Source: Candidatus Omnitrophota bacterium
GTDB taxonomy: Bacteria; Omnitrophota; Gorgyraeia; Zapsychrales; Fredricksoniimonadaceae
NCBI GenBank assembly: GCA_044225175.1
Contig: JBGAJA010000001.1
Span: forward strand, 742,711 to 806,710
Reading direction: 5' to 3'
DNA: 64,000 nt
The stretch's first letter is position 1. Each line of letters opens with the position of its first letter. The notes under the pieces are model-generated. The model had not been told where the DNA came from, did not search any database, and worked only from the letters and a program-made list of their open reading frames with translations. This document shows positions 17,572 to 54,088 of this stretch, one piece after another. A program made the position numbers and the translations under genes.

Positions 17572-20500
17572 TTACGACTGATAAACTTCTTCAGGATGGT
17601 TTAGGCCAAGAAACTCTGAGACATTGGTCATTGGCTGAATGTTGGTGATGACGGGTTTAAAACCAGGGGCATTCTGCAGTTTCTGCAACATAGATGGATC
17701 GAGGTTAAATCTGATCTCTTCTCCTGCGTTACGAACTTCCAAAGGAGTTTGATTAGCTGTGAAATCAATACCGCCCTTATTCTGGAACCTCGTAGGTTCC
17801 AGTGGCTTGGTGAGTTGGGCTGGGTCCGTTTTGGGTAAGAGTGTTATGACGGAAAGGAATTGCATAAATCTTGAGAATTTTTTATCATGGGTGAATAAAT
17901 CGTTTTTTGTAAGAACACCAAATTCAAAAGAATCCTTTTGAGCATTACTCTCAAAATATTCAAATAAATGGGCAAGTTCATGAATAGTTGTATTAGTAGG
18001 CTTATGGATCGCTCCATTAGAAGAAATATCCATTCTATGAGCTAATTGAGCATTAATGTACACTTTAGAATGACCCGAACGTCTACTGAACAACCCTTGA
18101 AATGGAGCTTCTGCCTTTACTATAACAACCTGCTCAAACCCTAATTTTTGCCCAATCTTTTGCACGAGACTTAACAAACGCTGTTGTTGAGAATTTAATG
18201 CTTCCTCAGGAATAGCCAGTGATTCAGCACTTATCATGGTGGCAATATGAGACATTCGATTAGCAAGCGCTCCTCTTTGCGCACCCCAAGGATCAACTGT
18301 ATTCAAAGCCTGTTGAAAACCTGCTTCATCTATACCCAAACTCTTGGCTCGTCTTCTGGCTGCCTCTTCAGAAATAGCAGCCTGAGTTTTTATTCTGCGC
18401 ATTAAAAGACTATTTTTGCCATCTTTGGTCTGCACATTCAATTGAGCTAAAAATGGAACCAAAGACTCTTCGAAAGATCGATTTACACCCTTACCTTCAA
18501 ACCAGCCTTTAAGAGTAGTTAAATCTTGATGACTAATAAGATGACCAGCATTAATATCGTTAATCACATCAAAAAGAGACCTTTCTTTTGCCAGAGACCA
18601 TTGTGTTTGATTCTCTGGACTTAAAACATTCCAATAAGACTCTCGCGCAGAGGTTTCCCAATCTCGAGGGATTTGGCTAATATGAAAATCAGGGTTAGTT
18701 AATTCTTGATGGATTAGAGCTTTATAAAACTCGAGGGCCACATACTGTTGAATGACAGGCATAATGACGGCTTCTTGTTCAAATGAACTTCTATTTTGAA
18801 TCAAAGGCAGAGGGATCTGAATAACCAAACGAAGCTCCTCAATATGTTTACGTAAGGATTCTGGAATCAAAGCTAAGAATTCCTTCTTCAAAGACAAACT
18901 TTCAACCCTCAATCCCTTTTTATCAATGATTTGCAATGGCATATCTGAATCTTGAGTGGACCAAAGTTTCAAAGGACCATAGTTGTGCTGACCTATTTTC
19001 AAATCTATTTCTGTTAACAAATTCTTTCCTTTAACTTTGACCTGTTCTTCTGTGATACGACCTTCTTCCTTTTCCTTTTCAACAACCAATTTAAACTGCT
19101 CATTAGAGGCCATCCCTGCAAACATTTTCCATGTATGTTGGCCTAACATCTGGTCAAGCTCAGCAATAGAGCTTTGAGAATTTCTCATTCGTCTTATAAT
19201 GACTCCTTTCGAGAAATCTTGAGGATTGGCAATCCCAACCTTAACAACAAAAACTCGACCCAGAGTTCGATTGACCTTCATCTCAAAGACATAAGCTTCT
19301 TGGCCATTGTTAGCAATCATTTGCACACGATCAACACCAGAATAAATGGTGAATTTACCAGTTCCAAAAAAACCAACTGTTTGGCCATTTTGTTGGTCTT
19401 TTATTTTATTGGACTTGGGGATGAGTAAAGCCAATGCTTTTCCCAGAGGAGGCCCTTGACCATCATCCACAGCTTCTTCGACCAGATCGCCCGTTTGAAC
19501 ATCTTTGTAATAACGCACCAGTAACTTATTAGCCCCTGCATCAGAAGAGTTTTGAGGAATTTCAGCCGCATAGCGGCCTGCTTCACCTTGAACATTCACA
19601 TATTGGCTAATTTCCCGTCTAAGATTAGGATTATCGATCGCCATCATTTGGCCTATATGTTCAGGGGTAAATAATCCTGCAATATCATACATACTCGATT
19701 GATCTATTCCAGAGCGCTTGTCCGCATTGAATTGAGCAATGTTTTCAACAGGAATACCTTCCTCTTTTTGCATAAGCCATTGAATATCTTTGGGCAATTC
19801 CAAGTCTTTCGTTTGCACATGATCAACACGGTTAGTCAAGAAGTCCACAAAAAACTGGGCTTCGCCTAATTCTGTAGCAGAACGGCGATCTGTTGCAGCT
19901 AATACGATTTGTTCTAAAGGTGTATGACTAAAGGCTTCATACCAAAGGGCCAAGTAGGATTCTTTACCCTTGCCTTTTGAAAATAAAAGCAATTTGTTTA
20001 ATTGATCTACTGCAATATCAATACTTTTATTGCCATTTTTTGCGACAAGACTTAAGAATACTACCATCAACGAACAAATATGAACGCTTATCTTTTGTCC
20101 ATAAATTTCATATAAAAGATCCAACATTTCATTAATAGGCTTAACTAAATTGATGGAATGATCGGCTTCTATTTTTAAAGAATATGTCATTGCTAATAAC
20201 CAAGAAGGAATATCAGCATTCTCCAAAGAAATCTTTTCATTCATAGCCATTACAAATATTTGATGGCTTAAACCTCTATAAAATTGATCACCAATCTCAT
20301 TATCAACCAAAGTATGTTCACTGGAAGGAAATAAAGGATTGCCTTTCTTCTTTAAATCTTGTAAACCTCTCAACAGTAGACTCATCTTTTTTATAAAAGA
20401 TTCCACCATAAGGTCATCCAAATTGACATGTTCTTTACCATTAGCTAAAGCATCTTTAAAACGTGTTTTAATCTGCTCTTTTTGCTTAGAATAGAAATAC

Positions 20501-23500
20501 TTGAATATTTCTAATAATTTCCCCTTATCTTTGACTTGAAGGAAATCCAAAACAGGTTGATAGGCTTCTCTAGCACGGGCAACAATCTCATCTCTCTTGT
20601 CTGTCACCTGCTTCCAAAGCATCTCTGCCCTAATCCTTTGTTCTTCTGAAACATCGTTCGCAGGGTTATTAGAGTGTTCATGAGCATATTTTTGAGGATC
20701 AAAAAACCTTATTTCATCTGTTTTAGGATTATGAAAGATAAAAACATTACCATTGATTCCCTGCAATTCAAAATCAGCGGGGATGCCTTTGACATCAAGC
20801 CAGGGATTTTCATTGAAATGCAAGGCATAGCCACCAGAATCTAGAGATGTGAGAACATACCTATTATCTGTGGTGACCCATGAGTCTAACCTATAATCTG
20901 CGTACTTACGCGATAAACGACTGTCCTGAAAACGCATATCAAGAAGACTATTATTTAAAGTATCTTTCTTAAACCATATCCCCTGGGAATAAAACGCTTG
21001 GATCTCCTGATCAGGAACTAAAAGATCACTTGTACTAGAACGATTTAAGTCAAGCCAATAGGTAGTTTCTTGACCGCGCTGATTATCTTTAACGATATAA
21101 ATGTTTCCAACCAACATTCGAGTGGAATCTGGAGGAATCAAATTTGTGGGAACTTTGATAAAATGCTGATCTTTCAAGTGAACAATATCAATCTCTCCAC
21201 TTAGAACAAAGGCTTCCCAGTATTCAGGCAAAATTTGATCATAATTAATACTCACCATATCTCCATTACTCCTGATCTTCCAGATCGTGACATGGTATAA
21301 ATCATTAAAACTACACAAGAAAATTTCATCATTGTTTCTAACAATATTAAATCCTACCTTTGATTCACCAATAACCCTCCCATTCTTTATTAAATAAGCC
21401 TTGAGAGTAGTTTCATCCACAGACGAGTACAAAATAATTTTACCCGAGTGATCCAAAGCTAATTTTTTAGTTTGAATGGTTTCATTAGTTACGAAATTAA
21501 TAATTTGATAGTTTTTAATCCCTGTTTCAGTTGATGTAAACTCTTGAATAAGCACTTCACTGTCCTTTATGAAATATTGTTTTAACGTGTGGTTAGTAAA
21601 GTGTAGAGCATCTATTTCAGCTTGCTCGACACCTCCTCGATCGTTAACCGCTAGAAACACTGTCACTTTATCAGGTGAAGTCATCCTTGGTGTGAATACA
21701 ATAAATTTCCCAGAATCAGAAATAGACACTTCGCCATTAAGATTTTGGTTTATATATTTTTCATTTTTTAGATTATAAATTGATTTTCCATATGGACCTT
21801 CCAGCAGAACAAGCTCACCTTTTACTTCTTTAACTGTTGTATTAGGAGGCACTAAAAAGACGTATTGGGATGCATATAGGGTTTGTCGACCATCATTGCT
21901 TGTAACAACAAAAACTTCCGGCGATATTTCGAGATAATCAACATAAGATATTGGATTTAATTTAGGATTACTCAAATCTCTGAGCTCAATCTTCTGTCCT
22001 TTTCGAAAGCTAGTCCATCGAGTTGCTAAAACTAAAGGAGGATTTTCACTAAAAAAATGATCGATAGGCGCGGTTAGAATTTTGGTTGGTTCATCAGGAT
22101 CCACATAAAGCGCCTTGCCATTGTCTGGATTATAAAACACAAAATATTTGCCATCGAATTCGACTCGGGGATATTCTTTAACAAATACAGGAATTTCACC
22201 TAACCCTCCTGCCTTTAACCCATCACTAATCATATACCGCTCTGATATGGAATTCGCATAAACGATCTTATGGCTCGATTCATCATACGCGCCAGCATCA
22301 ATATTTGGATCTAAACGTGGATTCATCATTCCGAAACTTAAAGTACCATCTTCTAATAAAACAATAATAGTAACCCTAGAAAGAGTTCCAATTAATTTTC
22401 CTTTAAATTTAAATTTTGCAAGCGAATCCTTTAAACTCCATGCTATCGTGTGGGTTGGATTGCTTTCATCAATCAAGAAAGGAAAACGAGGATGCTCATA
22501 AATCTTTCCAAAAATATTTTTTAAATCAAACTCTGCGCCACCTACCCCTAAAATTCCTTCTCCATTAATCCATAAAGCCATAATAGAATTTTTGTAGTTT
22601 TCCGAAAGCAATACTTGAAAAGATTTATCTTTTAAAAAAAACTTATTGGATGCTGTTTTTAATCTAAAGGCCCTATTTCCATCTTTGTCAAAACCTAATA
22701 CAGCTTCTCTATATTTCTCTTCAGAATCATTTAACCATTCCTTCGTTTCTGTGTTATAAAGTCTCACCTGGTCCCCATACGAAAAAATAGCAACTCCAGA
22801 AAGCGGATCAATATAACAAGATTCTGCCTGCGCAATCCCAACTTGAAGATCAACATAATTAGCTGTACCAGAATTTGGTTTTCGTAATTCCATAATCGAA
22901 GAATAGGGATGGAAACTCACCTCTCCTTCAAGATCAGCTAATCTGAGTACTGACTTGTCTTTCATATCAAAAATATGATAGTCATTCATAATACCTTTTA
23001 TTTTAAAAACAATAAATCGACCGTCTGGACTTATTTTCATTTCTTTAATTTTCCTTAATTCTTGGATCTCTCCTTCAAGAAAATTAATATATTTAGATTT
23101 TTCTGTATCAAAAGCTGTATATGAACCATTACTTAACTGATAAAACACATGCCTTCCATCTGGACTTAATATTGGCTCACCTATAGCATCCATCGGGTTT
23201 TGCCATATCAGTTGACTACCCGACTTAAAGACTAAAGCATTGTGGTGGATAGGATCACCTTCAACAGCAACAGCATATTTGTACTCAACCCACATATAAT
23301 CCCCATGTAAAACTCGTATCTTTGTAATTGTTGTTGCTTCACCCACCCATTTAATCTTTTGCCCCGTTGCAATCTCATAAACGTCCCCATTTCTCAACAT
23401 ATATTTCATTCGCGCATCTGCAGGAACATACACTTGTTCTTGAGGTTGTGTCATATCTGGTGGGGTGGTTAAGAACTTCGAAATAGCTTGATTATCTGCA

Positions 23501-26500
23501 GCTCCATCATCGTAAACTTTTAAATCCGGCGTGATAGGAGTATTCATTTTAGCCGTGGGTTGCGGAGCCCCCATTTCGTAACTGGTTGCTGGCTCATCTT
23601 CAGCCAAAAGCTTGATACGTTCCCCTAAGCTTAATAATTCCGTATGTTCATCAGCGCTTAATGGTGATTTACGTCTTTGCTCTAAAAGGTCTAGAAATCG
23701 CTGGGCCATTTGTCTGGGTACAATGACATAGCCATTGGTTTTAATTTTAGGCAAATCGTGGTGTTTTAGGAAATCGAATGTTCTAACATCATAGTTCATA
23801 AACGCTCTTAATGCGTCTGGTGTGAAATCAGCCACGATCAATTCTAATGTCTTTGAACCAAGGGTTTGTTTACTGATTAAATGAAAGTCATTGTATCGAA
23901 CAATGGTGGCACCGATCGATTCAAGCGCTTTTTGGGCGCCCCATTCAAATATATCTTCATTAACAAAGAGAACTTCTTTGCCTTGCTTCATAAGTAATTG
24001 GCCAAAACCTTTCTCATTAGGCAAAAGCACATACTTACCACTAGACTGCAAGGAATTGATCAAACGAGCAATTTTCTTTTTGATCATTCGCTTGATATCA
24101 TTAACCACATAGGCATTTTCTTGATTATCAGCAATCAAAGCTTCTAAGCCAGCCACAAGTGTATTGATGTATTTGATCTTCTGCACATCTCCCATTGGAT
24201 TCTCAAGAATACCTTTGACCATTTGTTCAACAGCCAATTGCATAGGCCAAGGGTTTCGAGCGTCATGATCCGATGGAAAGATGACCTTGTCTCTGGATTG
24301 TTGAACATTGATAAGCGTAGCAAACTCAAGGGCCAAATTTCCTTCAATTACAGAATCAGGATGAGTGGTCTCAGAAAGAGGAATACGCATGATAACTTCC
24401 CCATTTCTAACAAATGCGACAGACCTGCCTGGCTCATGAACATGAATGACCTTGATCTTACGAAGCTCCTCTTGAATGTCTCCTTGTGATAAGCTTTCAG
24501 TTGCCTTTGTTCCCCCTTCACCCGGGACTAACATTCCAGATAACACAGAAATATTCATCCCACTGCCATTATCAACAACCTTGATTTCGTGTTCATTAAA
24601 ATCAATGTTAATCCATTTTTCTTCTGATTTCACAAGTTGGTGTCCACTTGGCACAATAAACTCTCTATTTTCCCATCCATTGATCTTTTCTGTCTGTTGA
24701 TTTAGCTGTGTGGTAATTTTGATGTTTTCTACAATTCCAAAACGACTATGAATATTGTCCTTTAACCATTTTAAAGAATTGACTTGGCCATCCTGTACAA
24801 TGCTTTTGACTTTTCCTATTCTTACAACAGTCCCTTGTGTCATTCCTGGAACTTGGGTGGCCTTAAGAAAATCATCATCAGTCATAGAATAAATTTGTAT
24901 TTGATAAGCCTTATGTTCATCTTTCATGACTGTTAAACGCCAGGCTGGTTTGCCTTCTTGTTTGGTTACAATATCCAATCGATCTCCTGGATCCTCCAAC
25001 CAATCTAAAATTTGTTTAACTCCCTTACCAAACTGACCAATAGAGCCGCCCAATGCATCAATGCTATTAGCAACTGCTTCAATAATCGATTGCCCCTTGG
25101 GGTTTCCACTTTGTAAGCCAATGACAGAATCTAACCGTATCTCTTCATTAGTTCCTGCCTTTAAAGATTTGATCATGGCCTCTGTATAGCCTTGTTTGGC
25201 TAAAGCTTCTAGTGTTTCGATCGGAGATTCCTGACGCTTAAGCTTTTTCTGTGCCCTTAAGAATTCTAAAAGGTTAACCCCATTAAAAGGCAAAGCATTC
25301 CAATAGCTGTTATCACCCACCGGGTTGTCGGGATCAATCCTGGCAGAAACCATGGCTAAATCGCCCATTAAAGCATCTTTGGATATGGATTGAACTGTTT
25401 TAAAAACTTCTCCTAATCCATATTTAGAAGAGTTCAAAGCTAAATCAGCTCCCCCAGAGAAATACTTTCGTGGAATTGATTGATGGGTTATAGGATCAGT
25501 TACTTCTTTGATATAGTTGTAGACGCCTTTTTTGAAAGCGGTCAAGTAACGTTGGTAAATTAATTCGATATCTGTAGGGGCAGGGCTTGTCCCTGCCCTA
25601 GATAGGGCGGGTGTAAAACCCGCCCCTACAATTTTATTCTGATCAATATACACCTTTGCTAAAATCGAATCCCTAATCTTCTTCTTGTACCAGGTAGCTA
25701 GAATCAAAGAACCATACACCTGCCTAAGCTGCACAAAGTTGGCCCCTTCATTGATCTCTTTGGTCAATTCAGGAATAACAACCTCCCGTATGATCTGACT
25801 GTGCAAAAAGGTGTCAGACACCTTTTTATCAACCCGCCCCTTCAAAAAGGTGTCTGACACCTTTTTGGAGGCTACGTAGTCTTCTTCCAACATCACCTTT
25901 AGCCTGGATTCCACTACATAGGCTGTTCCTGCTTTAGCATTCTCATAAACCACTGCCTTTTCAGGGACTATCCATACCTTGTTGAAAGTATTGACTGGGA
26001 TATTGGTTGTTCCATACCTTTTGGCGGATTCTTCATAGATTCTTCTCCAGAATCTCTTTCCTATCTCATCTTCTGGGTACATAAGGCTGGCTGTGATCTG
26101 CTTTAGCATGTAGTCCTGGGCTAATAGGTCACGTCCCATCTCGGTTTGGCCAAAGCTTTCTGGGACAATGCGGTTTTTCTCATAGGGACTTAGATTCACC
26201 CATAGGTCGGCTTCTGGGGTGGTTAAAGAGGCCAAAAAGTACTTGATTAGACGGCTGGATTCTTGCCTTAAATTATGTGCATCAGCGACGGAACGTGACC
26301 CTGGATCTAGGATAAAATCGAAGCGAAAGGGGTTATCTGGATGGACCTTGATTCCTTTGAGTAGAGGTGGGGTCACAGGCGGACTTAAATGCACTCTCAC
26401 CCCAGGCTTAGGCAAATGAATGTCCTGGGCGTACGTCGGCATAGGACCCATACTGGTCACAATAAAACTAACCAAGATGACAATGACTAATGGGGTTTTG

Positions 26501-26547
26501 AGCATATCTATATTACCTTTATATAAATATGCCATATATAAAGTCAT
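17572..26547 (-). CDS. Giant secreted multidomain protein (2991 aa): shared N-terminal module, two GHKL/Hsp90-sacsin-like ATPase-motif regions, PD40-like beta-propeller repeats, C-terminal HExxH, shared C-terminal module
   Basis: Single uninterrupted ORF. Probable true start at Met15 (MLKTPLVIVILVSFIVTSMGPMPTYA-QD signal peptide; AAAGGT ~10 nt upstream). Canonical Bergerat motifs in order: EIPQNSSDAG (I), VDDGQGPPLG (II), GFFGTGKFTIYS (III). An earlier EAVANSIDALGG / DNGSGM region. Repeats of SPDGR(F/H)(I/V)(V/F). HELAHLFEYFE near the C-terminus. Confidence 0.8.
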   Translation of the reverse strand: MTLYMAYLYKGNIDMLKTPLVIVILVSFIVTSMGPMPTYAQDIHLPKPGVRVHLSPPVTPPLLKGIKVHPDNPFRFDFILDPGSRSVADAHNLRQESSRLIKYFLASLTTPEADLWVNLSPYEKNRIVPESFGQTEMGRDLLAQDYMLKQITASLMYPEDEIGKRFWRRIYEESAKRYGTTNIPVNTFNKVWIVPEKAVVYENAKAGTAYVVESRLKVMLEEDYVASKKVSDTFLKGRVDKKVSDTFLHSQIIREVVIPELTKEINEGANFVQLRQVYGSLILATWYKKKIRDSILAKVYIDQNKIVGAGFTPALSRAGTSPAPTDIELIYQRYLTAFKKGVYNYIKEVTDPITHQSIPRKYFSGGADLALNSSKYGLGEVFKTVQSISKDALMGDLAMVSARIDPDNPVGDNSYWNALPFNGVNLLEFLRAQKKLKRQESPIETLEALAKQGYTEAMIKSLKAGTNEEIRLDSVIGLQSGNPKGQSIIEAVANSIDALGGSIGQFGKGVKQILDWLEDPGDRLDIVTKQEGKPAWRLTVMKDEHKAYQIQIYSMTDDDFLKATQVPGMTQGTVVRIGKVKSIVQDGQVNSLKWLKDNIHSRFGIVENIKITTQLNQQTEKINGWENREFIVPSGHQLVKSEEKWINIDFNEHEIKVVDNGSGMNISVLSGMLVPGEGGTKATESLSQGDIQEELRKIKVIHVHEPGRSVAFVRNGEVIMRIPLSETTHPDSVIEGNLALEFATLINVQQSRDKVIFPSDHDARNPWPMQLAVEQMVKGILENPMGDVQKIKYINTLVAGLEALIADNQENAYVVNDIKRMIKKKIARLINSLQSSGKYVLLPNEKGFGQLLMKQGKEVLFVNEDIFEWGAQKALESIGATIVRYNDFHLISKQTLGSKTLELIVADFTPDALRAFMNYDVRTFDFLKHHDLPKIKTNGYVIVPRQMAQRFLDLLEQRRKSPLSADEHTELLSLGERIKLLAEDEPATSYEMGAPQPTAKMNTPITPDLKVYDDGAADNQAISKFLTTPPDMTQPQEQVYVPADARMKYMLRNGDVYEIATGQKIKWVGEATTITKIRVLHGDYMWVEYKYAVAVEGDPIHHNALVFKSGSQLIWQNPMDAIGEPILSPDGRHVFYQLSNGSYTAFDTEKSKYINFLEGEIQELRKIKEMKISPDGRFIVFKIKGIMNDYHIFDMKDKSVLRLADLEGEVSFHPYSSIMELRKPNSGTANYVDLQVGIAQAESCYIDPLSGVAIFSYGDQVRLYNTETKEWLNDSEEKYREAVLGFDKDGNRAFRLKTASNKFFLKDKSFQVLLSENYKNSIMALWINGEGILGVGGAEFDLKNIFGKIYEHPRFPFLIDESNPTHTIAWSLKDSLAKFKFKGKLIGTLSRVTIIVLLEDGTLSFGMMNPRLDPNIDAGAYDESSHKIVYANSISERYMISDGLKAGGLGEIPVFVKEYPRVEFDGKYFVFYNPDNGKALYVDPDEPTKILTAPIDHFFSENPPLVLATRWTSFRKGQKIELRDLSNPKLNPISYVDYLEISPEVFVVTSNDGRQTLYASQYVFLVPPNTTVKEVKGELVLLEGPYGKSIYNLKNEKYINQNLNGEVSISDSGKFIVFTPRMTSPDKVTVFLAVNDRGGVEQAEIDALHFTNHTLKQYFIKDSEVLIQEFTSTETGIKNYQIINFVTNETIQTKKLALDHSGKIILYSSVDETTLKAYLIKNGRVIGESKVGFNIVRNNDEIFLCSFNDLYHVTIWKIRSNGDMVSINYDQILPEYWEAFVLSGEIDIVHLKDQHFIKVPTNLIPPDSTRMLVGNIYIVKDNQRGQETTYWLDLNRSSTSDLLVPDQEIQAFYSQGIWFKKDTLNNSLLDMRFQDSRLSRKYADYRLDSWVTTDNRYVLTSLDSGGYALHFNENPWLDVKGIPADFELQGINGNVFIFHNPKTDEIRFFDPQKYAHEHSNNPANDVSEEQRIRAEMLWKQVTDKRDEIVARAREAYQPVLDFLQVKDKGKLLEIFKYFYSKQKEQIKTRFKDALANGKEHVNLDDLMVESFIKKMSLLLRGLQDLKKKGNPLFPSSEHTLVDNEIGDQFYRGLSHQIFVMAMNEKISLENADIPSWLLAMTYSLKIEADHSINLVKPINEMLDLLYEIYGQKISVHICSLMVVFLSLVAKNGNKSIDIAVDQLNKLLLFSKGKGKESYLALWYEAFSHTPLEQIVLAATDRRSATELGEAQFFVDFLTNRVDHVQTKDLELPKDIQWLMQKEEGIPVENIAQFNADKRSGIDQSSMYDIAGLFTPEHIGQMMAIDNPNLRREISQYVNVQGEAGRYAAEIPQNSSDAGANKLLVRYYKDVQTGDLVEEAVDDGQGPPLGKALALLIPKSNKIKDQQNGQTVGFFGTGKFTIYSGVDRVQMIANNGQEAYVFEMKVNRTLGRVFVVKVGIANPQDFSKGVIIRRMRNSQSSIAELDQMLGQHTWKMFAGMASNEQFKLVVEKEKEEGRITEEQVKVKGKNLLTEIDLKIGQHNYGPLKLWSTQDSDMPLQIIDKKGLRVESLSLKKEFLALIPESLRKHIEELRLVIQIPLPLIQNRSSFEQEAVIMPVIQQYVALEFYKALIHQELTNPDFHISQIPRDWETSARESYWNVLSPENQTQWSLAKERSLFDVINDINAGHLISHQDLTTLKGWFEGKGVNRSFEESLVPFLAQLNVQTKDGKNSLLMRRIKTQAAISEEAARRRAKSLGIDEAGFQQALNTVDPWGAQRGALANRMSHIATMISAESLAIPEEALNSQQQRLLSLVQKIGQKLGFEQVVIVKAEAPFQGLFSRRSGHSKVYINAQLAHRMDISSNGAIHKPTNTTIHELAHLFEYFESNAQKDSFEFGVLTKNDLFTHDKKFSRFMQFLSVITLLPKTDPAQLTKPLEPTRFQNKGGIDFTANQTPLEVRNAGEEIRFNLDPSMLQKLQNAPGFKPVITNIQPMTNVSEFLGLNHPEEVYQS
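25573..25630. repeat. GC-rich double-hairpin palindromic element, copy G1, in-frame inside giant CDS
   Basis: TGTAGGGG-CAGGG-cttgt-CCCTG-CCCTAGATAGG-GCGGG-tgtaaaa-CCCGC-CCCTACA. Terminal inverted repeats TGTAGGGG/CCCCTACA and two internal stem-loops. Encodes ...PALSRAGTSPAPTDIE... Confidence 0.75.
25805..25866. repeat. Two 23-bp perfect palindromes (AAAAAGGTGTC[A/T]GACACCTTTTT) 36 bp apart inside giant CDS
   Basis: 25805-25827 and 25844-25866 are exact reverse complements of each other, and each is self-complementary. They encode the duplicated peptide KKVSDTFL. The spacer contains AACCCGCCCCTT, resembling half of the double-hairpin element. Confidence 0.7.
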
Positions 26548-31065: not shown

Positions 31066-33693
31066 TTAGCTTAAAGGAATATCCAAGAAGGTTTGTGGAC
31101 TTGCAAGTGGAACAATGCGAAGAATCATTGGCTCAATTCCTAAGAAATCCTCACCTTGAAATTGAGCCGTAAAGGCTGGAAATTTCATCTCAATATTTTT
31201 ACCTTCTTTAACAACATCTAATTCCATATTCTTTGAGCTCAAATCAACACCACCAGGATTATTAATCTTGGCAGCTTTTGAATGACTCATAGCAAAATCT
31301 ACTTTCTTACTAAAACCTTCGGGATACTGGGTTACCCCATCTTCTTCTTTTAAAATAATCTGATAAGTATTTCCTGATATTCTCTTATGGCTCAAATATT
31401 TCTCAACCAACTCTGCGAGCTCATCAAGTTTACTATTTAAATCATCAATCTCTACAAAATCATTCCACAGATCATGGGTTAAATTGTTAACTATGGAAGT
31501 CTTTATTCTATTTCTTAGTATTACCCTCTCAGCTTCTCCTATTGGTGGAGCCGTAAATCTAGAGCCTTTCAAAGATTCCGCAATACTATGAGGGTCATAT
31601 GTATCAATCCTCTCAAGCAATAATGAAATTATGTGTTGAACATCAGTCATTGACAAATTTCTTGATAAATCAAGGTTAAAATCACCAGCACCAAGAGGAC
31701 GAATAGTCAATAGATTAAGGGCTTCAAGAATATCGTCGTCTTTTACAAAGGGGAACGCACGTTTCAAGAATTTTCCAAGTTGTTCTTTAACATTTGATTT
31801 AGACATCAGCGGACTCATAGAAAAAAATTCTTTATGAGCTATATTAGCCAAAACAATACTTCTAATTTCTGCAGGGATGTCTGTACTTAGAATATAATTA
31901 GAATCTGTCTTAAAATTGATCGTATGCTTTAGTTTTTCTTGGATTCTAAAGCCCTCTATAGCTGAGCGGATGATCGTCAATATGGGGAGTTTTATGTTAC
32001 CATTGTTATTAAACAATCTTTCTCTGATAAGATTTGCTTCATCCTGAGTTTGATTCTCAAATAATCGATATCTATTATTCTGCATTTGATCAACCTTCTG
32101 CACTAAACGATCAAATAAATTACTATTTTTATAAAAGATCTTTTCTAAAAGCGGCAATCCTTCCTTATCAAGATAATCCGGGTTTTCAAAAGCCTCACGA
32201 AACAACCTGCCGATTACATCTCCTTTCTTAGCAAAACGTATAAATTGTTGAAAATCATAGAATGAAACATTTGAATTCATCGCAAAATCTTTAGATTTGT
32301 TATGTACTCTTGCCATATAGACACTAGCCATAGCCAAATCTCCATTGGCCCCCAGACTATCTTGAGAGGACGCCGTTGAAACACGCTGTAGTACATTCGG
32401 AATCCCCAAGTCTTGAGCTATGCCCCCTGAGAAGTACTTCCTAGAAATTCGCTGGTCTCGGGTTGATTCTAGATCTTCTTTGATGTAGTTAAATACGCCT
32501 TTTTTGTAGGCTTGGAGGTATTGATGGTAGATGGTTTCAACGTCAGATGGTGGGTTCCTCTGGGTCGCTTTCAGTTTCAACCCTGAGTCGCTTGGCAATG
32601 TGCTTGGGGACACGTTCCTGTTGATTTTGACCTGAACATGTCCCCTGGTCGGCGTTGTATAACCAATTCCTTCAATTTTCTTCTTATCTGCATACACCTG
32701 ATTCAATAATGTATTCTTAAGGGTTTGTTTGTACCATGTGGCTAGGATCATGGAATAGAACATTTGGCGCAAGGGGGCGAAGTTTTGGCCTTGGTTGACC
32801 TCGTTTTCTAATTCGGGCAATATGATGTCGCGGATGATTTGGTTTGCTAAGGCGTTGGGGGTGTTTCCCTGGGGTGCTTTCGCATTCAGCGCTGTCTCGC
32901 TTGGCAGCATGCTTGGGGACACGTTCTTATTGGTTTTGTAATGAACATGTCCCCTGGTTGGCGTTTGATTTTTTTCATTAGCTAGATAATCTTCCTCCAA
33001 CATCACCTTCAAATGCGCTCCAACGATATACCCTACGTTATTCCTCTCAAGAACCTTGGCTTTATCGGCTACGATCCATACTTTATTGAATGTATTCACA
33101 GGAATTTGGGTATTACCATAAAGGGCTTGGGCCTTTGCATAAACCTTGTCCCAGAATTTCTTGCCTAGGTCTTTCTCAGGATAAATTAGAGAAGCGGTTA
33201 ATTGTTTGAGGATGTAATCTTGGGCCAGCATGTCTCGGCCTAGCTCGGTGTTCCCTAGTTCTTCAGGAACTATTCTGTCTTTCTCATAGGGGGATAAATT
33301 CACCCAGAGGTCTTTTTCGGGGATAGTTAATGAGGCTAGGAAATATTTGATTAATTTGTTTGATTCGTCTTGTAGGGGTGACCCTTGCGGTCGCCCTTTT
33401 TGGACAGGGGCGAGCCCTGCCACTACGGACAATCCAGAATTCCCTGTATCCACGACGAAATCAAATAACAAAGGATTCTCTGGATGGACTTTCAGGCCTT
33501 TGATCATGACAGGCATATAGGCCTGGCTCAAAGACATCATTTCTCCAGGCACAGGCAATTGTAGGGGCGAGGTTCCCTCGCCCTTAATAGGCCTGGGAAA
33601 CCCAGCCCCTACATCAGCCCAAGTAGAGCGTGGCCCCAAAATGCCTGTAATTATGAAGCACAGGAGAATAACAACAGATGTCATTTTTTTCAT
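31066..33693 (-). CDS. Secreted protein (875 aa), paralogous to the N- and C-terminal modules of the 2991-aa giant protein
   Basis: Signal peptide MKKMTSVVILLCFIITGILGPRSTWA. N-terminal ~400 aa align with the giant protein (e.g. LIKYFLASLT(I/T)PE(K/A)DLWVNLSPYEK(D/N)RIVPE...NTFNKVWIV...LKVMLEEDY). The C-terminal ~70 aa are also related. Confidence 0.8.
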   Translation of the reverse strand: MKKMTSVVILLCFIITGILGPRSTWADVGAGFPRPIKGEGTSPLQLPVPGEMMSLSQAYMPVMIKGLKVHPENPLLFDFVVDTGNSGLSVVAGLAPVQKGRPQGSPLQDESNKLIKYFLASLTIPEKDLWVNLSPYEKDRIVPEELGNTELGRDMLAQDYILKQLTASLIYPEKDLGKKFWDKVYAKAQALYGNTQIPVNTFNKVWIVADKAKVLERNNVGYIVGAHLKVMLEEDYLANEKNQTPTRGHVHYKTNKNVSPSMLPSETALNAKAPQGNTPNALANQIIRDIILPELENEVNQGQNFAPLRQMFYSMILATWYKQTLKNTLLNQVYADKKKIEGIGYTTPTRGHVQVKINRNVSPSTLPSDSGLKLKATQRNPPSDVETIYHQYLQAYKKGVFNYIKEDLESTRDQRISRKYFSGGIAQDLGIPNVLQRVSTASSQDSLGANGDLAMASVYMARVHNKSKDFAMNSNVSFYDFQQFIRFAKKGDVIGRLFREAFENPDYLDKEGLPLLEKIFYKNSNLFDRLVQKVDQMQNNRYRLFENQTQDEANLIRERLFNNNGNIKLPILTIIRSAIEGFRIQEKLKHTINFKTDSNYILSTDIPAEIRSIVLANIAHKEFFSMSPLMSKSNVKEQLGKFLKRAFPFVKDDDILEALNLLTIRPLGAGDFNLDLSRNLSMTDVQHIISLLLERIDTYDPHSIAESLKGSRFTAPPIGEAERVILRNRIKTSIVNNLTHDLWNDFVEIDDLNSKLDELAELVEKYLSHKRISGNTYQIILKEEDGVTQYPEGFSKKVDFAMSHSKAAKINNPGGVDLSSKNMELDVVKEGKNIEMKFPAFTAQFQGEDFLGIEPMILRIVPLASPQTFLDIPLS
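32552..32656. repeat. ~105-bp direct repeat, copy A, inside the 875-aa paralog CDS, with internal inverted repeat GGGGACACGTTC...GAACATGTCCCC
   Basis: Near-identical to 32861-32966. Each copy encodes TPTRGHV..K.N.NVSPS.LPS. The internal ~12-bp inverted repeat could form a hairpin. Confidence 0.7.
32861..32966. repeat. ~105-bp direct repeat, copy B, inside the 875-aa paralog CDS
   Basis: See copy A. About 309 bp separates the copies. Confidence 0.7.
33371..33428. repeat. Double-hairpin palindromic element, degenerate copy P2, in-frame in the 875-aa paralog CDS
   Basis: TGTAGGGG-TGACCC-ttgc-GGTCGCCC-tttttgga-CAGGG-gcgag-CCCTG-CCACTACGG. Same termini and architecture as G1, with a degenerate 3' end. 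Encodes LAPVQKGRPQGSPLQDE. Confidence 0.55.
33560..33613. repeat. Double-hairpin palindromic element, copy P1, in-frame in the 875-aa paralog CDS
   Basis: TGTAGGGGC-GAGG-ttc-CCTC-GCCCTTAATAGG-CCTGGG-aaa-CCCAGC-CCCTACA. Encodes GAGFPRPIKGEGTSPLQLPV just after the signal peptide. Confidence 0.75.
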
Positions 33694-36330: not shown

Positions 36331-36356
36331 AAAAAAACAACCTGTTAAGGTTGTGA
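36331..36356 (-). terminator. Rho-independent terminator downstream of rpsP
   Basis: Stem CAACCT-gtta-AGGTTG at 36338-36353. On the minus strand it is followed by UUUUUUU (plus aaaaaaa at 36331-36337). Confidence 0.65.
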
Positions 36357-36358
36357 TT

Positions 36359-36601
36359 TTATTTAGCTTTTTTCATTAAACTACGAACGGTATCGCTTAA
36401 TTGAGCGCCTTTGGCAACCCAGGCATTGATTTTTTCTGTGTTAAGAGAAAAAACTGCTGGTTTCTTAGCGGGATCATAATAACCTAAGATATCTAAGGTT
36501 CTTCCATCACGAGCAGCATTACGTGGAAGAGCTACAACACGCCAGTTATATGATTTATTTGATGCCTTACCTGCTTTTTGTAATCTGATTCTTACTTCCA
36601 T
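36359..36601 (-). CDS. rpsP: 30S ribosomal protein S16
   Basis: 80 aa. RLQKAGKASN..YNWRVVALPRNAARDGRTLDILGYYDP is the S16 signature. Confidence 0.9.
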   Translation of the reverse strand: MEVRIRLQKAGKASNKSYNWRVVALPRNAARDGRTLDILGYYDPAKKPAVFSLNTEKINAWVAKGAQLSDTVRSLMKKAK

Positions 36602-36622
36602 TATTGTGTTTCCTTTCGGTAT

Positions 36623-36681
36623 TGTTGGGGCAGGTTCTAAACCTGCCCTTTAATTGGGTGGGTTTGGAACCCACCCCTACG
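36623..36681. repeat. Double-hairpin palindromic element, intergenic copy I1, between rpsP and the trpE-like gene
   Basis: TGTTGGGG-CAGG-ttctaaa-CCTG-CCCTTTAATTGG-GTGGG-tttggaa-CCCAC-CCCTACG. Fills the whole intergenic gap. Stems differ from G1 by compensatory changes (CAGGG/CCCTG to CAGG/CCTG; GCGGG/CCCGC to GTGGG/CCCAC). Confidence 0.75.
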
Positions 36682-36682
36682 A

Positions 36683-38176
36683 TTAATGCGCCAATTCAAT
36701 CGCCCTAATCTGCGCCCGGGCTTTGTTGACTGTTTCTTGGTATTCTGTAGCTGGATTTGAGTCTGCCACCAAACCTGCTCCGGCTTGGACATAAGCTCGC
36801 CCGCGACAGACGACTATTGTACGTATAGTTATGCAAGTATCAAGGTTTTTCGAAAAACTGAAGTATCCGACCGCCCCCCCATAAGTGGCCCTTCTTTGGG
36901 CCTCTAAATCCTCAATAATCTCCATGGCACGAATTTTGGGAGCTCCGGAAAGCGTTCCAGCAGGAAATGCAGCTTGCAAGACATCTAAAGCATCTTTGTC
37001 GTCTCGGATTTGGCCTTGAACATTGCTGACAATGTGCATTACATGGGAATATTTCTCCACACTCATGAAATCCGAAATCTTGACTGTTCCCTGTTTGCAC
37101 ACACGGCCTAAATCATTGCGTCCCAAATCAACCAACATCACATGTTCAGCTTTTTCCTTAGGATCTGCTAAAAGCTCCTTTTCGAGGGCTTTGTCTTCTT
37201 CCTGGGTTTTGCCGCGATGGCGGGTCCCAGCAATTGGACGAGTCTCAACTAAGCCATCTTCACAGCGAACCAAGAGCTCTGGAGACGCTCCCACTAACTG
37301 TAAACCATCAAAATTTAGATAAAACATGTATGGAGAAGGATTTAATGCACGCAAGGCACGGTAAATATTGAATGGATCAACGGAAATTTTGGCTTCAAAA
37401 CGCTGGGATAAGACAACTTGGATAATATCGCCATCATAAATATGCTTCTTTGCCTTTACAACCATGTCTTCATACTTCTTTTGAGTACAATTGGACGTAA
37501 CTTTGAGGGATTTCTTTCCTGCCAGCTCAAGACTTTTTATGGCAATAGGCTGACGCAATTCTTTGATGAGACCATCAATCTTCTTGATTGCTTCGTTATA
37601 TTTCTTAATCTTAGTAGCCTGAGAATCACCTTTAGCTAAATGTACTGAGGAAACGACTTTGATGGTGTGATGACGATGGTCAAAGACGACCAAATCCTGA
37701 GCTAAAACCATGATCATGTCTGGAATATTCAAATCATCTTTGGCCTTAACAGGCAGACGTTCAAAGAAACGCACACAGTCATATGTTAAGAAACCAACCA
37801 TACCGCCATAAAATTTGGGTAATTGAGGGATATCAACCGCTTGATAAGCACTCATCAATTCACGGATGATTTCAAGTGGTGAAGATTGAATAGCCCTTTT
37901 TTCAGTGGTTGTCTTGCCTTTAACCACTCGAATAATTTGAGCATCTTGACCTTTAGAACGAATAATCAGCGACGGACTACGAGCTATAAAAGAGAACCGA
38001 GCGGTCTTCTCCCCGCCTTCCACAGACTCTAAGAGAAAAGAGTGCTTAGCTTTCTTAGCCAGATGCAAATAGGCAGAGGTCGGGGTCAAATAGTCCCCTA
38101 AGATTTCCTTGAAAACAGGAATCAAATTGCCCTTTTGGCTTAAATTTAGAAATTCTTCTTTTGTTAAATGATTCAT
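36683..38176 (-). CDS. Chorismate-binding enzyme: anthranilate synthase component I / aminodeoxychorismate synthase-like
   Basis: 497 aa. MLVDLGRNDLGRV and C-terminal chorismate-binding motifs (GGAVGYFS, AGAGLVADS). No adjacent amidotransferase subunit gene in the window. Confidence 0.8.
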   Translation of the reverse strand: MNHLTKEEFLNLSQKGNLIPVFKEILGDYLTPTSAYLHLAKKAKHSFLLESVEGGEKTARFSFIARSPSLIIRSKGQDAQIIRVVKGKTTTEKRAIQSSPLEIIRELMSAYQAVDIPQLPKFYGGMVGFLTYDCVRFFERLPVKAKDDLNIPDMIMVLAQDLVVFDHRHHTIKVVSSVHLAKGDSQATKIKKYNEAIKKIDGLIKELRQPIAIKSLELAGKKSLKVTSNCTQKKYEDMVVKAKKHIYDGDIIQVVLSQRFEAKISVDPFNIYRALRALNPSPYMFYLNFDGLQLVGASPELLVRCEDGLVETRPIAGTRHRGKTQEEDKALEKELLADPKEKAEHVMLVDLGRNDLGRVCKQGTVKISDFMSVEKYSHVMHIVSNVQGQIRDDKDALDVLQAAFPAGTLSGAPKIRAMEIIEDLEAQRRATYGGAVGYFSFSKNLDTCITIRTIVVCRGRAYVQAGAGLVADSNPATEYQETVNKARAQIRAIELAH

Positions 38177-38298: not shown

Positions 38299-38892
38299 TT
38301 ACTTATTTTGAGCAAATTTCAAAAGATTTGAATAGTCTCCAGCATCTGCTTTTCTTAAGGCATTTAAGTAAAATTCTCTTACTTTATCATTATCTTCAAC
38401 CTCTTCAATGATCCAGCTAAAAGGCTTTTGCTTAAGCACATTGGTCAACAGCATATCTGTCATCAAACGCGCATGTCTGCCATTGCCATTAGGAAATAAG
38501 TGAATCCATACTAACTTATGATGAAATCGAACAGCTATTTCATCTGCGGGATACACTTTCTCTGTGATCCAATGCTTTGTATCTTCTAATAGTAAATGTA
38601 AGGCAACTGATATTTGATTAGCCTCTACTCCAATATTCTTTCCACTTTTACGGAATTGACCGGCCCAACGCCATACTTCGCCAAACATCTTCTTATGTAA
38701 AACCTTAATGAACTTCTCAGTTAATATATCACCTTGACGATGCGTTTGCATCCAGGACAAAGCCTCATTAATATTGTCTTGTTCCCAACGATTAAGTTCT
38801 TCACGGGTTGTTATATGCTTTAACTTAAGCCCTTCTATCTCATCTGGATCGAGCGGTGTTGCTCCAGGAAGATAATCAAAACTATTTTTCAT
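38299..38892 (-). CDS. Fic/DOC family protein ('mobile mystery protein B'-like)
   Basis: 197 aa. Fic motif HLFPNGNGRHARL. Translationally coupled to an upstream HTH gene (11-nt overlap). Confidence 0.8.
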   Translation of the reverse strand: MKNSFDYLPGATPLDPDEIEGLKLKHITTREELNRWEQDNINEALSWMQTHRQGDILTEKFIKVLHKKMFGEVWRWAGQFRKSGKNIGVEANQISVALHLLLEDTKHWITEKVYPADEIAVRFHHKLVWIHLFPNGNGRHARLMTDMLLTNVLKQKPFSWIIEEVEDNDKVREFYLNALRKADAGDYSNLLKFAQNK

Positions 38893-39349
38893 CCCAAAAA
38901 TCCTTTGGCTGTTCTATTAAAATCTTTTCAATCATATCATTTAAAGCTTTTTCTTGTTCTTGTGAAGACAGCTCCTGCTTTTCCAAACGCATAGTATTGT
39001 TCAAATTCTTAAGTCTTTTTAAAACGATTTTCTTAGCTTGCTCTTTAACCATCTGTTCAAGACTTGTTTCTGAAACAAACCCGTAAACAAACTTCATATT
39101 TAGACCTTTGGCAATTTTCTCTAAAGAAGATAATTTTAGATTGCCACTTTTTTCAGCATTCTCTAATCGAGATATTCTTGATTGGTCAATGCCTACTTTC
39201 TGGCTTAATTGTCTGCTAGTCATTCCTAAGGCTTCTCTGATACCTTTAATCCATCCCTGCTGAAAAATACCTGATTCAGGCAAAACCTTTAAAGGTGCTA
39301 ATTTATTATTAAGTTGCTCACGTAACTTCTTTTGATCCCAGTATTTCAT
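38882..39349 (-). CDS. HTH (XRE-like) DNA-binding protein ('mobile mystery protein A'-like) paired with Fic
   Basis: 155 aa. HTH region MTSRQLSQKVGIDQSRISRLENAEKSG. Palindromic operator-like sites in its upstream region. Confidence 0.7.
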   Translation of the reverse strand: MKYWDQKKLREQLNNKLAPLKVLPESGIFQQGWIKGIREALGMTSRQLSQKVGIDQSRISRLENAEKSGNLKLSSLEKIAKGLNMKFVYGFVSETSLEQMVKEQAKKIVLKRLKNLNNTMRLEKQELSSQEQEKALNDMIEKILIEQPKDFWDEK

Positions 39350-47533: not shown

Positions 47534-47603
47534 GTGTCATTGCAAGGAGCAAAGCGACGAAGCAATCTATTAAAGGATTGCTTCACTTCGTTCGCAATGA
47601 CAC
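47534..47603. promoter_or_regulatory. 70-bp nested imperfect palindrome immediately upstream of alaS RBS (downstream of recX)
   Basis: Outer 10-bp stem GTGTCATTGC/GCAATGACAC. Inner 9-bp stem GAAGCAATC/GATTGCTTC around loop tattaaag. Ends ~15 nt before AGGAAAATATG (alaS). Confidence 0.5.
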
Positions 47604-52495: not shown

Positions 52496-54088
52496 ATGAA
52501 TTTTAACCCATACACAATCCCACCAATTTTGTGTTTGTTACTGGCTGTTATATGTGGTGTTTTTGTTATTGGTCAGAATCCTAAAGCAAAACTAAATCAG
52601 ATTTTCTTATTTATATGCCTAACATTTATAGGCTGGTTCTCCTTTTACATCCCCTTTAATTTTCCATACTCAGAGCATCAAATATTAATTTGGACTAAAA
52701 TTTCTTTTTGTTTTATTTCTTTCATTCCTATAACGACTTTCACATTTATTTCCACTTATTTACAAATCCCTAAGAATGAATTCTGGTTTAGAATAAACTC
52801 ATTAATTGGATTAGTATTCTCTATATTAAGCCTAAGTACTGATTGGATTATTAAAGGAGTCTTGCATTTGCCTTGGCATCCTTATCCTGAGGCTGGCATT
52901 CTTCATCCACTACTAATATTACACTGCCTTTCCTTAGCTTATTGGGGGATAAAATTGACACTTATTACGCTAAAAGATAAATCCCTTTCTGATAAGCGGC
53001 GCAATCATATCAAATACATGTTTATCGCCATGATTGCATTAACACCTGGAGCCATTGACTTTCTAGGAAATTATAATATTCAAGTTTACCAAATCGGATA
53101 TATACCGGTATCTGCTTATTTATTAATAACGACAATCGCCATCATTAAATATCAATTAATGGACATTCAGATTATATTAAAGAAAAGTCTTCTTTATACA
53201 ATTTTGATTGCCGTTATTGCCCTGTTCTATTTTCTTTCCATTTATGTGGCTGAACATGCTCTACAGAATATCTTTAAATATCAGTCTATTTTTATTTCTC
53301 TATTCTTCGCCACTATTATTGCTATTGTCTTTATTCCGATTAAAAACTTTCTAGAAAAGCATCTGTTTAATAAAAGTTTAGGGATGATTGCCGAAGAAAA
53401 TGATCTTTTAAGAGTGGAAGTTGCTCAAACTGAAAAATTCAAAATGGTAGCCAATCTGGCCAGTAGCATTGCCCATGAAATCAAAAATCCCCTGACTGCC
53501 CTTCAAACTTTTAATGAATATTTACCTCAAAAAAAGAATGATCCAGAGTTTTTTGATAAATACCAAACCATCGTATCGCAAGAGCTCAATCGTATTAATG
53601 GTTTAGCACAAGAACTTTTAGCTTTTGCCAAGCCTTGCCCCCCTCAAATCCAACAAGTCAATCCCAACGAAATCATTACTCAAATCATCCAATTAGTTCA
53701 TCAGAAATGCTCTGCAAATAAAATCAATATTGAAACTAAGCTAGAGGCCCATAACCTTATATCAGCCGACCCCAATCAACTCAAACAAGCATTGCTTAAT
53801 ATTATCCTGAACGCCATTGATGCCATGCCTGATGGAGGCATATTAACTATTTCTACCAGTGTCATTGCGAGCGAAGCGAAGCAATCTTTTACTATTAGCA
53901 TCTCCGACACCGGCTCCGGCATCTTCCCTAAAGATTTACCTCATATCTTTGAACCGTTTTATACAGGAAAAGAAAAAGGCACAGGATTAGGACTTGCAAT
54001 TACTCAAGGGATTGTTGAGAAACATGGCGGGAAAATATTCGTAGAAAGCAAAATTAACCAAGGCACAACATTTACTATAAAACTATGA
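52496..54088 (+). CDS. Sensor histidine kinase 1 of tandem array (multi-TM N-terminal sensor + HisKA + HATPase_c)
   Basis: 530 aa. ~6-7 TMs, H-box [14 protein letters not shown] boxes ([25 protein letters not shown]). 4-nt overlap with next HK. Confidence 0.85.

Follow-up and report, generated by a model that had tools for sequence, protein, structure and literature searches.

A probable dimer of GTAG-tagged palindromes as a derived insertion between trpE and rpsP in a Candidatus Omnitrophota genome

GTAG-tagged repetitive extragenic palindromes (REPs) are defined by a GTAG tetranucleotide that stands at the base of a short GC stem-loop (Di Nocera, De Gregorio, Rocco 2013, PMC3733652), and the survey of these repeats distinguishes 24 GTAG families of 20-40 bp GC-rich palindromes with stems of 6-13 bp (PMC3733652). 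In the published head-to-head dimers the GTAG ends point outward and the partners lie 1-5 bp apart; the repeats prefer sites <=20 bp from the 3' end of an upstream open reading frame (ORF), between genes of the same direction, and dimers lying in-frame within genes encode 20-30 aa, most commonly in Opitutus terrae, a bacterium of the Planctomycetes-Verrucomicrobia-Chlamydiae (PVC) group (PMC3733652). The present analysis concerns a 59-bp element in the spacer between trpE and rpsP, at positions 36623-36681 of a 64,000-nt stretch of DNA (37.6% GC; hereafter the window) from Candidatus Omnitrophota bacterium, contig JBGAJA010000001.1 (GCA_044225175.1), positions 742,711-806,710. We conclude with good confidence that the element consists of two GTAG-tagged REPs in a head-to-head dimer resembling a REPIN (a REP doublet forming a hairpin), that it belongs to the type with stems starting in GGG which elsewhere is associated with group 4 of the RAYTs (tyrosine transposases associated with REPs), that it is a derived insertion, and that any effect it has would fall on trpE.

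RAYT group 4 corresponds to subclass 2.4 of the TnpA_Y1 transposases (Quentin et al. 2018, PMC6006769), whose signature comprises three G-C pairs at the stem base, a 5' GT[AG]G foot, 'double-foot' forms, and REPs lying within the transposase gene between its HuH motif and its Y motif, with a scattered occurrence over many phyla (PMC6006769). For Escherichia coli, PMC12306157 cites work in which REPs shield upstream mRNA from 3' exonucleases and in which REPs <16 nt from a stop codon lower the translation of the upstream gene. The element in the window and its surroundings are composed as follows.

36623-36681, no strand assigned: whole element (copy c3), a head-to-head REP dimer with GTAG ends outward; core 36624-36680.
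36656-36680, minus strand: REP A, with the GTAG foot at 36680-36677, stem GGGTGGG, loop TTCCAAA and stem CCCACCC.
36624-36648, plus strand: REP B, with GTTG, stem GGGCAGG, loop TTCTAAA and stem CCTGCCC.
36649-36655, no strand assigned: inter-REP spacer, 7 nt, AT-rich, TTTAATT.
36602-36622, minus strand: remaining spacer of 21 nt with the rpsP Shine-Dalgarno region GAAAGGAAAC, outside the element.
36683-38176, minus strand: upstream gene trpE, for anthranilate synthase component I, 497 aa, TAA stop at 36685-36683.
36359-36601, minus strand: rpsP (ribosomal protein S16), the downstream gene, 80 aa, Pfam Ribosomal_S16.
36337-36354, minus strand: terminator-like hairpin of canonical form with a T-run after it, just 3' of rpsP.

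A direct sequence check placed the 59-mer quoted in an earlier note on this DNA at 36623-36681 on the plus strand, and the statement of that note that the element almost completely fills the trpE/rpsP gap was confirmed, with 59 of the 81 nt of the spacer (36602-36682) occupied and the rpsP ribosome-binding site as the exception. One edge of the element lies 1 nt from the TAA stop of trpE and the other 21 nt before the ATG of rpsP, and the stem of REP A begins 7 nt past the trpE stop codon. The two hairpins, GGGCAGG-ttctaaa-CCTGCCC and GGGTGGG-tttggaa-CCCACCC, are 21 nt each and have perfect 7-bp GC stems, which extend to 9 bp in the RNA fold, with a predicted energy of about -16 kcal/mol each as minus-strand RNA. 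The isolated 59-mer is predicted to fold into one long hairpin (-32.7 kcal/mol as minus-strand RNA, -37.6 kcal/mol for the plus strand), and the folding z-score of the 111-nt region was -3.0 relative to shuffles. The GTAG foot of REP A stands directly at the stem base. With inverted REPs, a 7-nt spacer and the capacity to fold as a single long hairpin, the element has the build described for REPINs in the REPIN-RAYT system (Bertels and Rainey 2011, PMC3116915). The same element was present in identical form in two near-identical contigs (L001 and L002), of which L001 stops exactly at its outer edge. The best database matches of the trpE ORF, at 80-90% identity, were proteins named from 'Candidatus Omnitrophica' (Pfam PF04715 and PF00425), and the closest TrpE relative in the protein database search was P0001 (90% identity).

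Hairpins of this type were found far beyond the window. The pattern GTAGGGGCAGG-N5-9-CCTGCCC was present in at least 120 IMG/VR contigs, often as dimers, and GTAGGGGYRGGTTNNNAACCYRCCC in at least 120 genome stretches of many phyla, including Chloroflexota, Thermodesulfobacteriota, Binatia, Nitrospirota, Planctomycetota, Patescibacteria, Firmicutes, Deinococcus and others, as well as the Omnitrophota L200, L216 and L246. Among the genome matches listed, 172 of 189 copies had complementary bases at two variable stem positions. Singlets and single hairpins of the 'double-foot' form were common, and the double-foot forms, which end in CTAC, made up 92 of the pattern matches counted across the genome loci (stem tally: 189). 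Both hairpins of the element recur 21/21 identical in distant genomes: the REP A 25-mer GTAGGGGTGGGTTCCAAACCCACCC is identical in L231 (a metagenome-assembled genome of Anaerolinea, inside a RAYT gene), L196 and L144, and the 21-nt hairpin of REP B in L068, L086 and L144. In L144 (1921-1992) the two hairpins, each 21/21 identical, stand tail-to-tail and 20 nt apart; this contig is binned as Aquirhabdus (Gammaproteobacteria, 44% GC), and the pair reflects either horizontal spread or a mis-binned contig.

RAYT-like ORFs accompanied the hairpins in 5 of the 120 genome stretches among the matches listed (L156, L203, L221, L222 and L231). All five carry the HUH (MPNHVHGI) and Y (WQRNYYEHIIR) motifs, and the hairpins not only flank each ORF but also interrupt it in-frame between these motifs, as in ...MPNHFHGIIYIDSPVGVGSKPTP...RAGHGPAPT...WQRSYYDHIIR; the L231 ORF reads ...VGVGSKPTP...RAGHGPAPT..., and its internal hairpin is identical to REP A. 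The ORFs match Pfam Y1_Tnp and the NCBIfam model 'REP-associated tyrosine transposase' (NF047646; E = 1e-19, 70.8 bits), compared with 20.6 bits for IS200. A phmmer search with E. coli RayT gave no match against the window ORFs and 120 viral loci, and matches appeared only when the genome loci were added. The GGG/GGGG stem starts, the double-foot forms, the scatter over many phyla, and the flanking and in-gene hairpins of a Y1/HUH transposase observed in other genomes agree with the description of RAYT group 4, or TnpA_Y1 subclass 2.4 (PMC6006769). The element is classed as an ordinary REP dimer whose type is known and RAYT-associated, documented here in Omnitrophota, for which nearly all knowledge comes from metagenomes and in which repeats of this kind had not been catalogued.

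Compared with the GTAG REPs of PMC3733652, the element shares the unpaired GTAG, the GC stem, the outward-pointing dimer with partners a few bp apart, and the position of c3 near the trpE 3' end between genes of the same direction; it differs in the 7-nt loops, which are mostly very short in the survey, in the GTTG at one foot of c3, and in the intragenic location of most window copies. That survey does not include Omnitrophota, and the likeness was judged from its descriptions of the repeats. In-frame intragenic dimers encoding about 20 aa are shared with these REPs, including those of Opitutus terrae, as is the presence within the PVC group. Unlike a complete REPIN-RAYT system, the window and the related loci yielded no RAYT, and the window copies are diverged and form no cloud around a master sequence. 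E. coli REPs and bacterial interspersed mosaic elements (BIMEs) likewise form GC-rich hairpins that lie near stop codons within transcribed spacers, but in sequence only the GTAG foot is shared, and the E. coli RAYT belongs to a different subclass (2.2). Rickettsia palindromic elements (RPEs) resemble the sibling copies described below in being short, palindromic and in-frame in protein genes without disrupting them, whereas the REP-like RPEs are CGTC-tagged (PMC3733652) or longer (RPE-1), no transposase is known for them, and their sequences are unrelated. attC sites, repeats of clustered regularly interspaced short palindromic repeat (CRISPR) arrays, hairpins of diversity-generating retroelements and left-end/right-end mini-elements of IS200/IS605 were considered and rejected on sequence and orientation, because the GTAG feet point outward, no array spacing is seen and the hairpins are inverted rather than direct.

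Within the window, perfect GC-rich 7-bp hairpins were strongly enriched (9 observed against 0.15 expected from 100 Markov simulations), and closely spaced pairs of GC hairpins, which are present in the window, occurred in none of the 100 simulations. Exact and 3-mismatch searches with each c3 hairpin returned no second copy in the window; c1 and c2 were found by a generic scan for GC hairpins, and c4 by reading a protein alignment. Together with c3, four dimers of the same build are thus present in 64 kb, the other three being as follows.

25574-25629, no strand assigned: c1, REP dimer with GTAG/CTAC feet on both hairpins, in-frame in the 2991-aa ORF, encoding VGAGFTPALSRAGTSPAPT.
33561-33612, no strand assigned: c2, REP dimer lying in-frame within the 875-aa ORF just past the signal peptide, encoding VGAGFPRPIKGEGTSPLQ.
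33372-33426, no strand assigned: c4, degenerate REP dimer in-frame in the 875-aa ORF, encoding VVAGLAPVQKGRPQGSPLQ.

Stems begin with GGG/GGGG in every window copy. c1 and c2 have GTAG on both arms, compared with one GTAG arm and one GTTG arm in c3, and their termini TGTAGGGGC...GCCCCTACA are of the same type as the ends of c3. Their inter-REP spacers of 6-7 nt (TAGATA, TTAATA) are similar to that of c3 in composition. Column identity among c1, c2 and c3 is only about 72%, and the stems stay complementary. When aligned with a paralogue and with the homologue in the sister genome L003 (GCA_964583975.1), c2 is a clean insertion. L003 itself holds three or more copies in 20 kb; one of its GTAG REPs, the singlet GTAGGGGAGGGTTCAAAACCCTCCC at 1019-1043, lies within an rsmE-like methyltransferase gene (470-1216), indicating that housekeeping genes can carry REP inserts too. 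The earlier note had described c3 as a copy of the 'same element' as those in the secreted-protein genes and as not confined to these genes. The identity holds at the level of architecture, and so does the wider location, with three copies in secreted-protein ORFs and c3 intergenic. Of some interest are the in-frame copies in giant secreted proteins and the near identity of the hairpins to ones from very distant phyla.

The gene order hisI-trpE-rpsP-yajC-secDF is kept in nine related loci, with TrpE proteins 70-85% identical to that of the window. The contents of the trpE-rpsP spacer differ among lineages as follows.

Window (TrpE 100%): spacer 81 nt, REP dimer.
L003 (TrpE 85%): spacer 49 nt, one GTAG hairpin (singlet).
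L128 (TrpE 83%): spacer 49 nt, weak, foot-less (degenerate) hairpin.
L004 (TrpE 82%): spacer 117 nt, unrelated CCCCTCCC/GGGAGGGG repeat.
L129 (TrpE 82%): spacer 79 nt, dimer built in the same way but from different stems.
L130 (TrpE 81%): spacer 20 nt, empty, ribosome-binding site only.
L131 (TrpE 80%): spacer 52 nt, weak, foot-less (degenerate) hairpin.
L252 (TrpE 73%): spacer 25 nt, empty, ribosome-binding site only.
L253 (TrpE 70%): spacer 30 nt, empty, ribosome-binding site only.

The spacer is thus empty in three of ten lineages, including both outgroups (the most distant relatives), and some hairpin is present at the junction in the other seven. In all three empty spacers the sole content is a AAGAAAGGAA-type motif, the same as in the window beside the element. 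The fillers are of three unrelated GC-hairpin kinds, all starting within a few nt of the trpE stop. The TrpE tree places the two dimer-bearing genomes (the window and L129) in separate clades and the empty L130 as the sister of L128; both dimers begin exactly 2 nt past the stop codon. Since the spacer is empty in three loci and variously filled in the others, the element appears from this comparison to be a derived insertion subject to turnover, rather than a conserved rpsP leader, and ten lineages provide empty and filled alleles of one operon junction. The simplest history would start from an ancestral junction that was bare and tightly coupled, with insertions and turnover later on.

Two observations concern the neighbourhood of this junction. 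The L004 spacer (11495-11611) contains the GC-rich repeat CCCCTCCCTTGGTGGGAGGGG ... CCCTCCCCACAAGGGGGAGGG, and the contig of L005 (3051-3090) ends inside the same repeat, which suggests that this repeat is likely to be multi-copy too. Upstream of trpE in the window, two ORFs of 197 aa and 155 aa lie at 38299-39349, at a place where hisI abuts trpE in 9/9 relatives; the 197-aa ORF contains a Fic-like motif, HLFPNGNGRHAR, and the pair looks like an inserted Fic/antitoxin-type module.

Comparison of empty and filled sites gives an indication of how the dimer may have arrived. Empty sites read TAA-CAAC(T)AAGAAAGGAA, or TAA-CAAGAAAGG in L130, and filled sites read TAA-NN-GTAG...GCCC-CAACA..., with no target-site duplication visible between filled and empty sites. 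From the three empty sites we infer an ancestral trpE-rpsP junction of 20-30 nt with only the rpsP ribosome-binding site, into which the dimer would have been inserted between the TAA stop and the CAAC motif without target duplication. Since empty sites read TAA-CAAC, the GTTG of c3 (CAAC on the coding strand) may be a pre-existing flank of the target; it may also be read as a degenerate foot of REP B. Insertion beside a foot-like tetranucleotide would fit single-strand transposition by a Y1 enzyme, and the dimer could have come by RAYT-type transposition of single-strand DNA or, through recombination or conversion, from other copies, with turnover among lineages afterwards. Such empty/filled pairs could help to define the insertion target of a poorly understood class of transposases.

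Because the spacers of three relatives are only 20-30 nt, transcription most likely reaches rpsP by read-through, either from trpE or from a trpE-internal promoter, and because the ancestral spacer would have been too short for a promoter, the element most likely lies within a trpE-rpsP message or within a transcript from a trpE-internal site. A promoter scan gave one unverified promoter-like match inside trpE, TTGATA-16-TACAAT at 36843-36816. The proposal of the earlier note that the element is a transcript-embedded structure therefore stands in part: it is very probably inside a transcript, but a regulatory role in the rpsP leader is not supported. In a read-through message, we infer, the element would form two stable RNA hairpins, which could guard the trpE 3' end against 3'-to-5' exonucleases, and the REP A stem 7 nt past the stop could slow ribosomes terminating on trpE, an effect reported for REPs of E. 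coli at <16 nt from a stop codon. With the first stem 7 nt after the trpE stop and the E. coli precedent, any effect is expected on trpE rather than on rpsP; likewise, the suggested role as a stabiliser is possible for trpE, by analogy with E. coli, rather than for rpsP. Most likely the effect is neutral or mild and, if present, would act on the upstream gene, and the data would fit a neutral insertion equally well. Paired empty and filled sites amount to natural constructs for the influence of a REP located 7 nt past a stop codon, outside E. coli.

Several points weigh against the interpretation of the element as a RAYT-type REP dimer inserted with little consequence. The GTTG foot of REP B falls outside the published variants (GYAG, GYRG, GTRG, GTMG and GTGG). 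Searches by phmmer and jackhmmer of the 64-kb window and of about 150 kb from related Omnitrophota loci detected no Y1/RAYT ORF, so the RAYT link holds for the hairpin type in other genomes and a cognate transposase in this genome is hypothetical; even there, the 70.8 bits of the RAYT-like ORFs are below the NCBIfam curated cutoff of 80 bits, probably due to the REP insertions that interrupt them. The four window copies differ from one another (c1-c3 about 72% identical) and as such diverged copies lend no support to recent mobility, and 3 of the 4 are intragenic, which is atypical for REPs. Every expression effect is drawn from E. coli precedents by analogy. In addition, the hairpin-bearing junctions in 7/10 lineages could indicate selection for structure rather than mere tolerance.

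This last point leads to an alternative in which any stable hairpin between trpE and rpsP is advantageous as a kind of operon punctuation and different repeats were recruited independently; the hairpin could protect the 3' end of a his/trp message, uncouple the translation of trpE and rpsP, or set the ratio of their products. The GC-rich hairpins in seven of ten lineages, with at least three unrelated sequence types, are in line with it, as are the dimers of the window and L129, which belong to different clades and both stand 2 nt past the stop, and the reports on E. coli REPs, as cited in PMC12306157, of stabilised upstream mRNA and modulated translation at <16 nt from the stop. However, the spacer of three lineages, both outgroups among them, is bare and only 20-30 nt long, the fillers vary widely in stability and length, and the same repeats occupy many unrelated sites including ORFs; tolerance combined with high insertion pressure suffices to explain the pattern, and we regard selected punctuation as unlikely. 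A more specific version, in which REP dimers were domesticated repeatedly as a device for the trpE:S16 ratio through ribosome stalling and exonuclease block, with CAAC as the transposase target, is speculative and would be unlikely as well. A transcription terminator, acting in one or both directions between trpE and rpsP, is a very improbable role, even though two stable GC hairpins follow directly past the stop codon and TTTAATT comes after REP B on the plus strand. Neither hairpin is followed by a U-tract on the transcribed strand (the sequences after the hairpins are AAUUAAAG and CAACAAUA), the terminator scan did not flag the element but did flag canonical hairpin and T-run terminators close by, at 36354-36337 and 33779-33752, and no convincing rpsP promoter is found in the remaining 21 nt, so that a terminator here would silence the essential rpsP unless the promoter-like site inside trpE is real.

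The interpretation proposed in the earlier note, an rpsP-specific 5' leader element such as an attenuator, a small RNA (sRNA) or a processing site, to which an autoregulatory site for S16 may be added, has in its favour the strong structure directly upstream of the rpsP ribosome-binding site and the promoter-like sequence at 36843-36816, which would place the element in a 5' leader. Nevertheless, it is hardly tenable. The comparison of rpsP leaders across relatives, proposed in that note as a check, found the spacer empty in 3/10 lineages and otherwise variously filled, with the element absent or replaced in most relatives; folding with and without the insert, another check proposed there, gave the same predicted unpaired probability for the rpsP Shine-Dalgarno region (0.79 vs 0.79), indicating that its modelled accessibility does not change on deletion; and the sibling copies stand at unrelated sites, coding sequence included. 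No Rfam family matched the element at E up to 10. The best overlaps were sub-threshold (22.7 against a gathering score of 79 bits, and 19.9 against 49.9 bits), and the sub-threshold matches to mir-569, AS-pc01, freshwater-2 and MIR162_2 were set aside as chance hits. With no conservation, no Rfam match, no U-tract and no predicted effect on the Shine-Dalgarno region, the element is not a dedicated regulator of rpsP, and a false lead is removed, as the structure 5' of rpsP is a dispersed REP dimer and not a regulator of a ribosomal protein. A conventional MITE (miniature inverted-repeat transposable element) with the terminal inverted repeats TGTAGGGGC...GCCCCTACA, moved by a DDE transposase instead of a RAYT, deserves very little credence as well: c1 and c2 do have perfect 9-nt inverted termini and a compact size of 52-57 bp, but filled and empty sites display no target-site duplication, singlets and 'double-foot' single hairpins are common, and the sole transposase found beside these hairpins is of the Y1/RAYT type. 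A RAYT-type REP dimer as a derived insertion thus remains the preferred interpretation of the element.

The two secreted-protein genes that hold c1, c2 and c4 contain further repeats. At 25804-25867, the 2991-aa ORF contains in-frame two copies of a perfect 24-nt palindrome, CAAAAAGGTGTCAGACACCTTTTT and its complement, which are separated by 16 nt and encode KKVSDTFLKGRVDKKVSDTFL; they represent a second family of palindromic repeats in coding sequence, unrelated to the REP dimers. The 875-aa ORF carries a 108-nt direct repeat with 79% identity (32549-32656 and 32858-32965) encoding TPTRGHV..NVSPS.LPS... segments, and one of its copies stands at the site where the 2991-aa paralogue holds the REP dimer c1, indicating that paralogous loops carry different inserts.

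Both genes (875-aa, 31066-33693; 2991-aa, 17572-26547) are absent from these positions in the relatives. In 6/9 loci (L003, L004 and L128-L131), secDF is followed directly by mfd; in 5/6 of these, the gene after ksgA encodes a 4HBT thioesterase, and in L128 it encodes a 493-aa membrane protein instead. In L003 a homologue of the secreted proteins is located further downstream, with its own REP-like inserts at other positions.

Elsewhere in the window, an inverted pair at 47568-47603 and 53859-53894, 89% complementary and with the motif GTCATTGCGAGCGAAGCGAAGCAATC, looks like another short dispersed palindromic element. On the plus strand, 52496-58870 contains four tandem paralogues of about 530 aa with a period of 1592 nt and 60-80% DNA identity.

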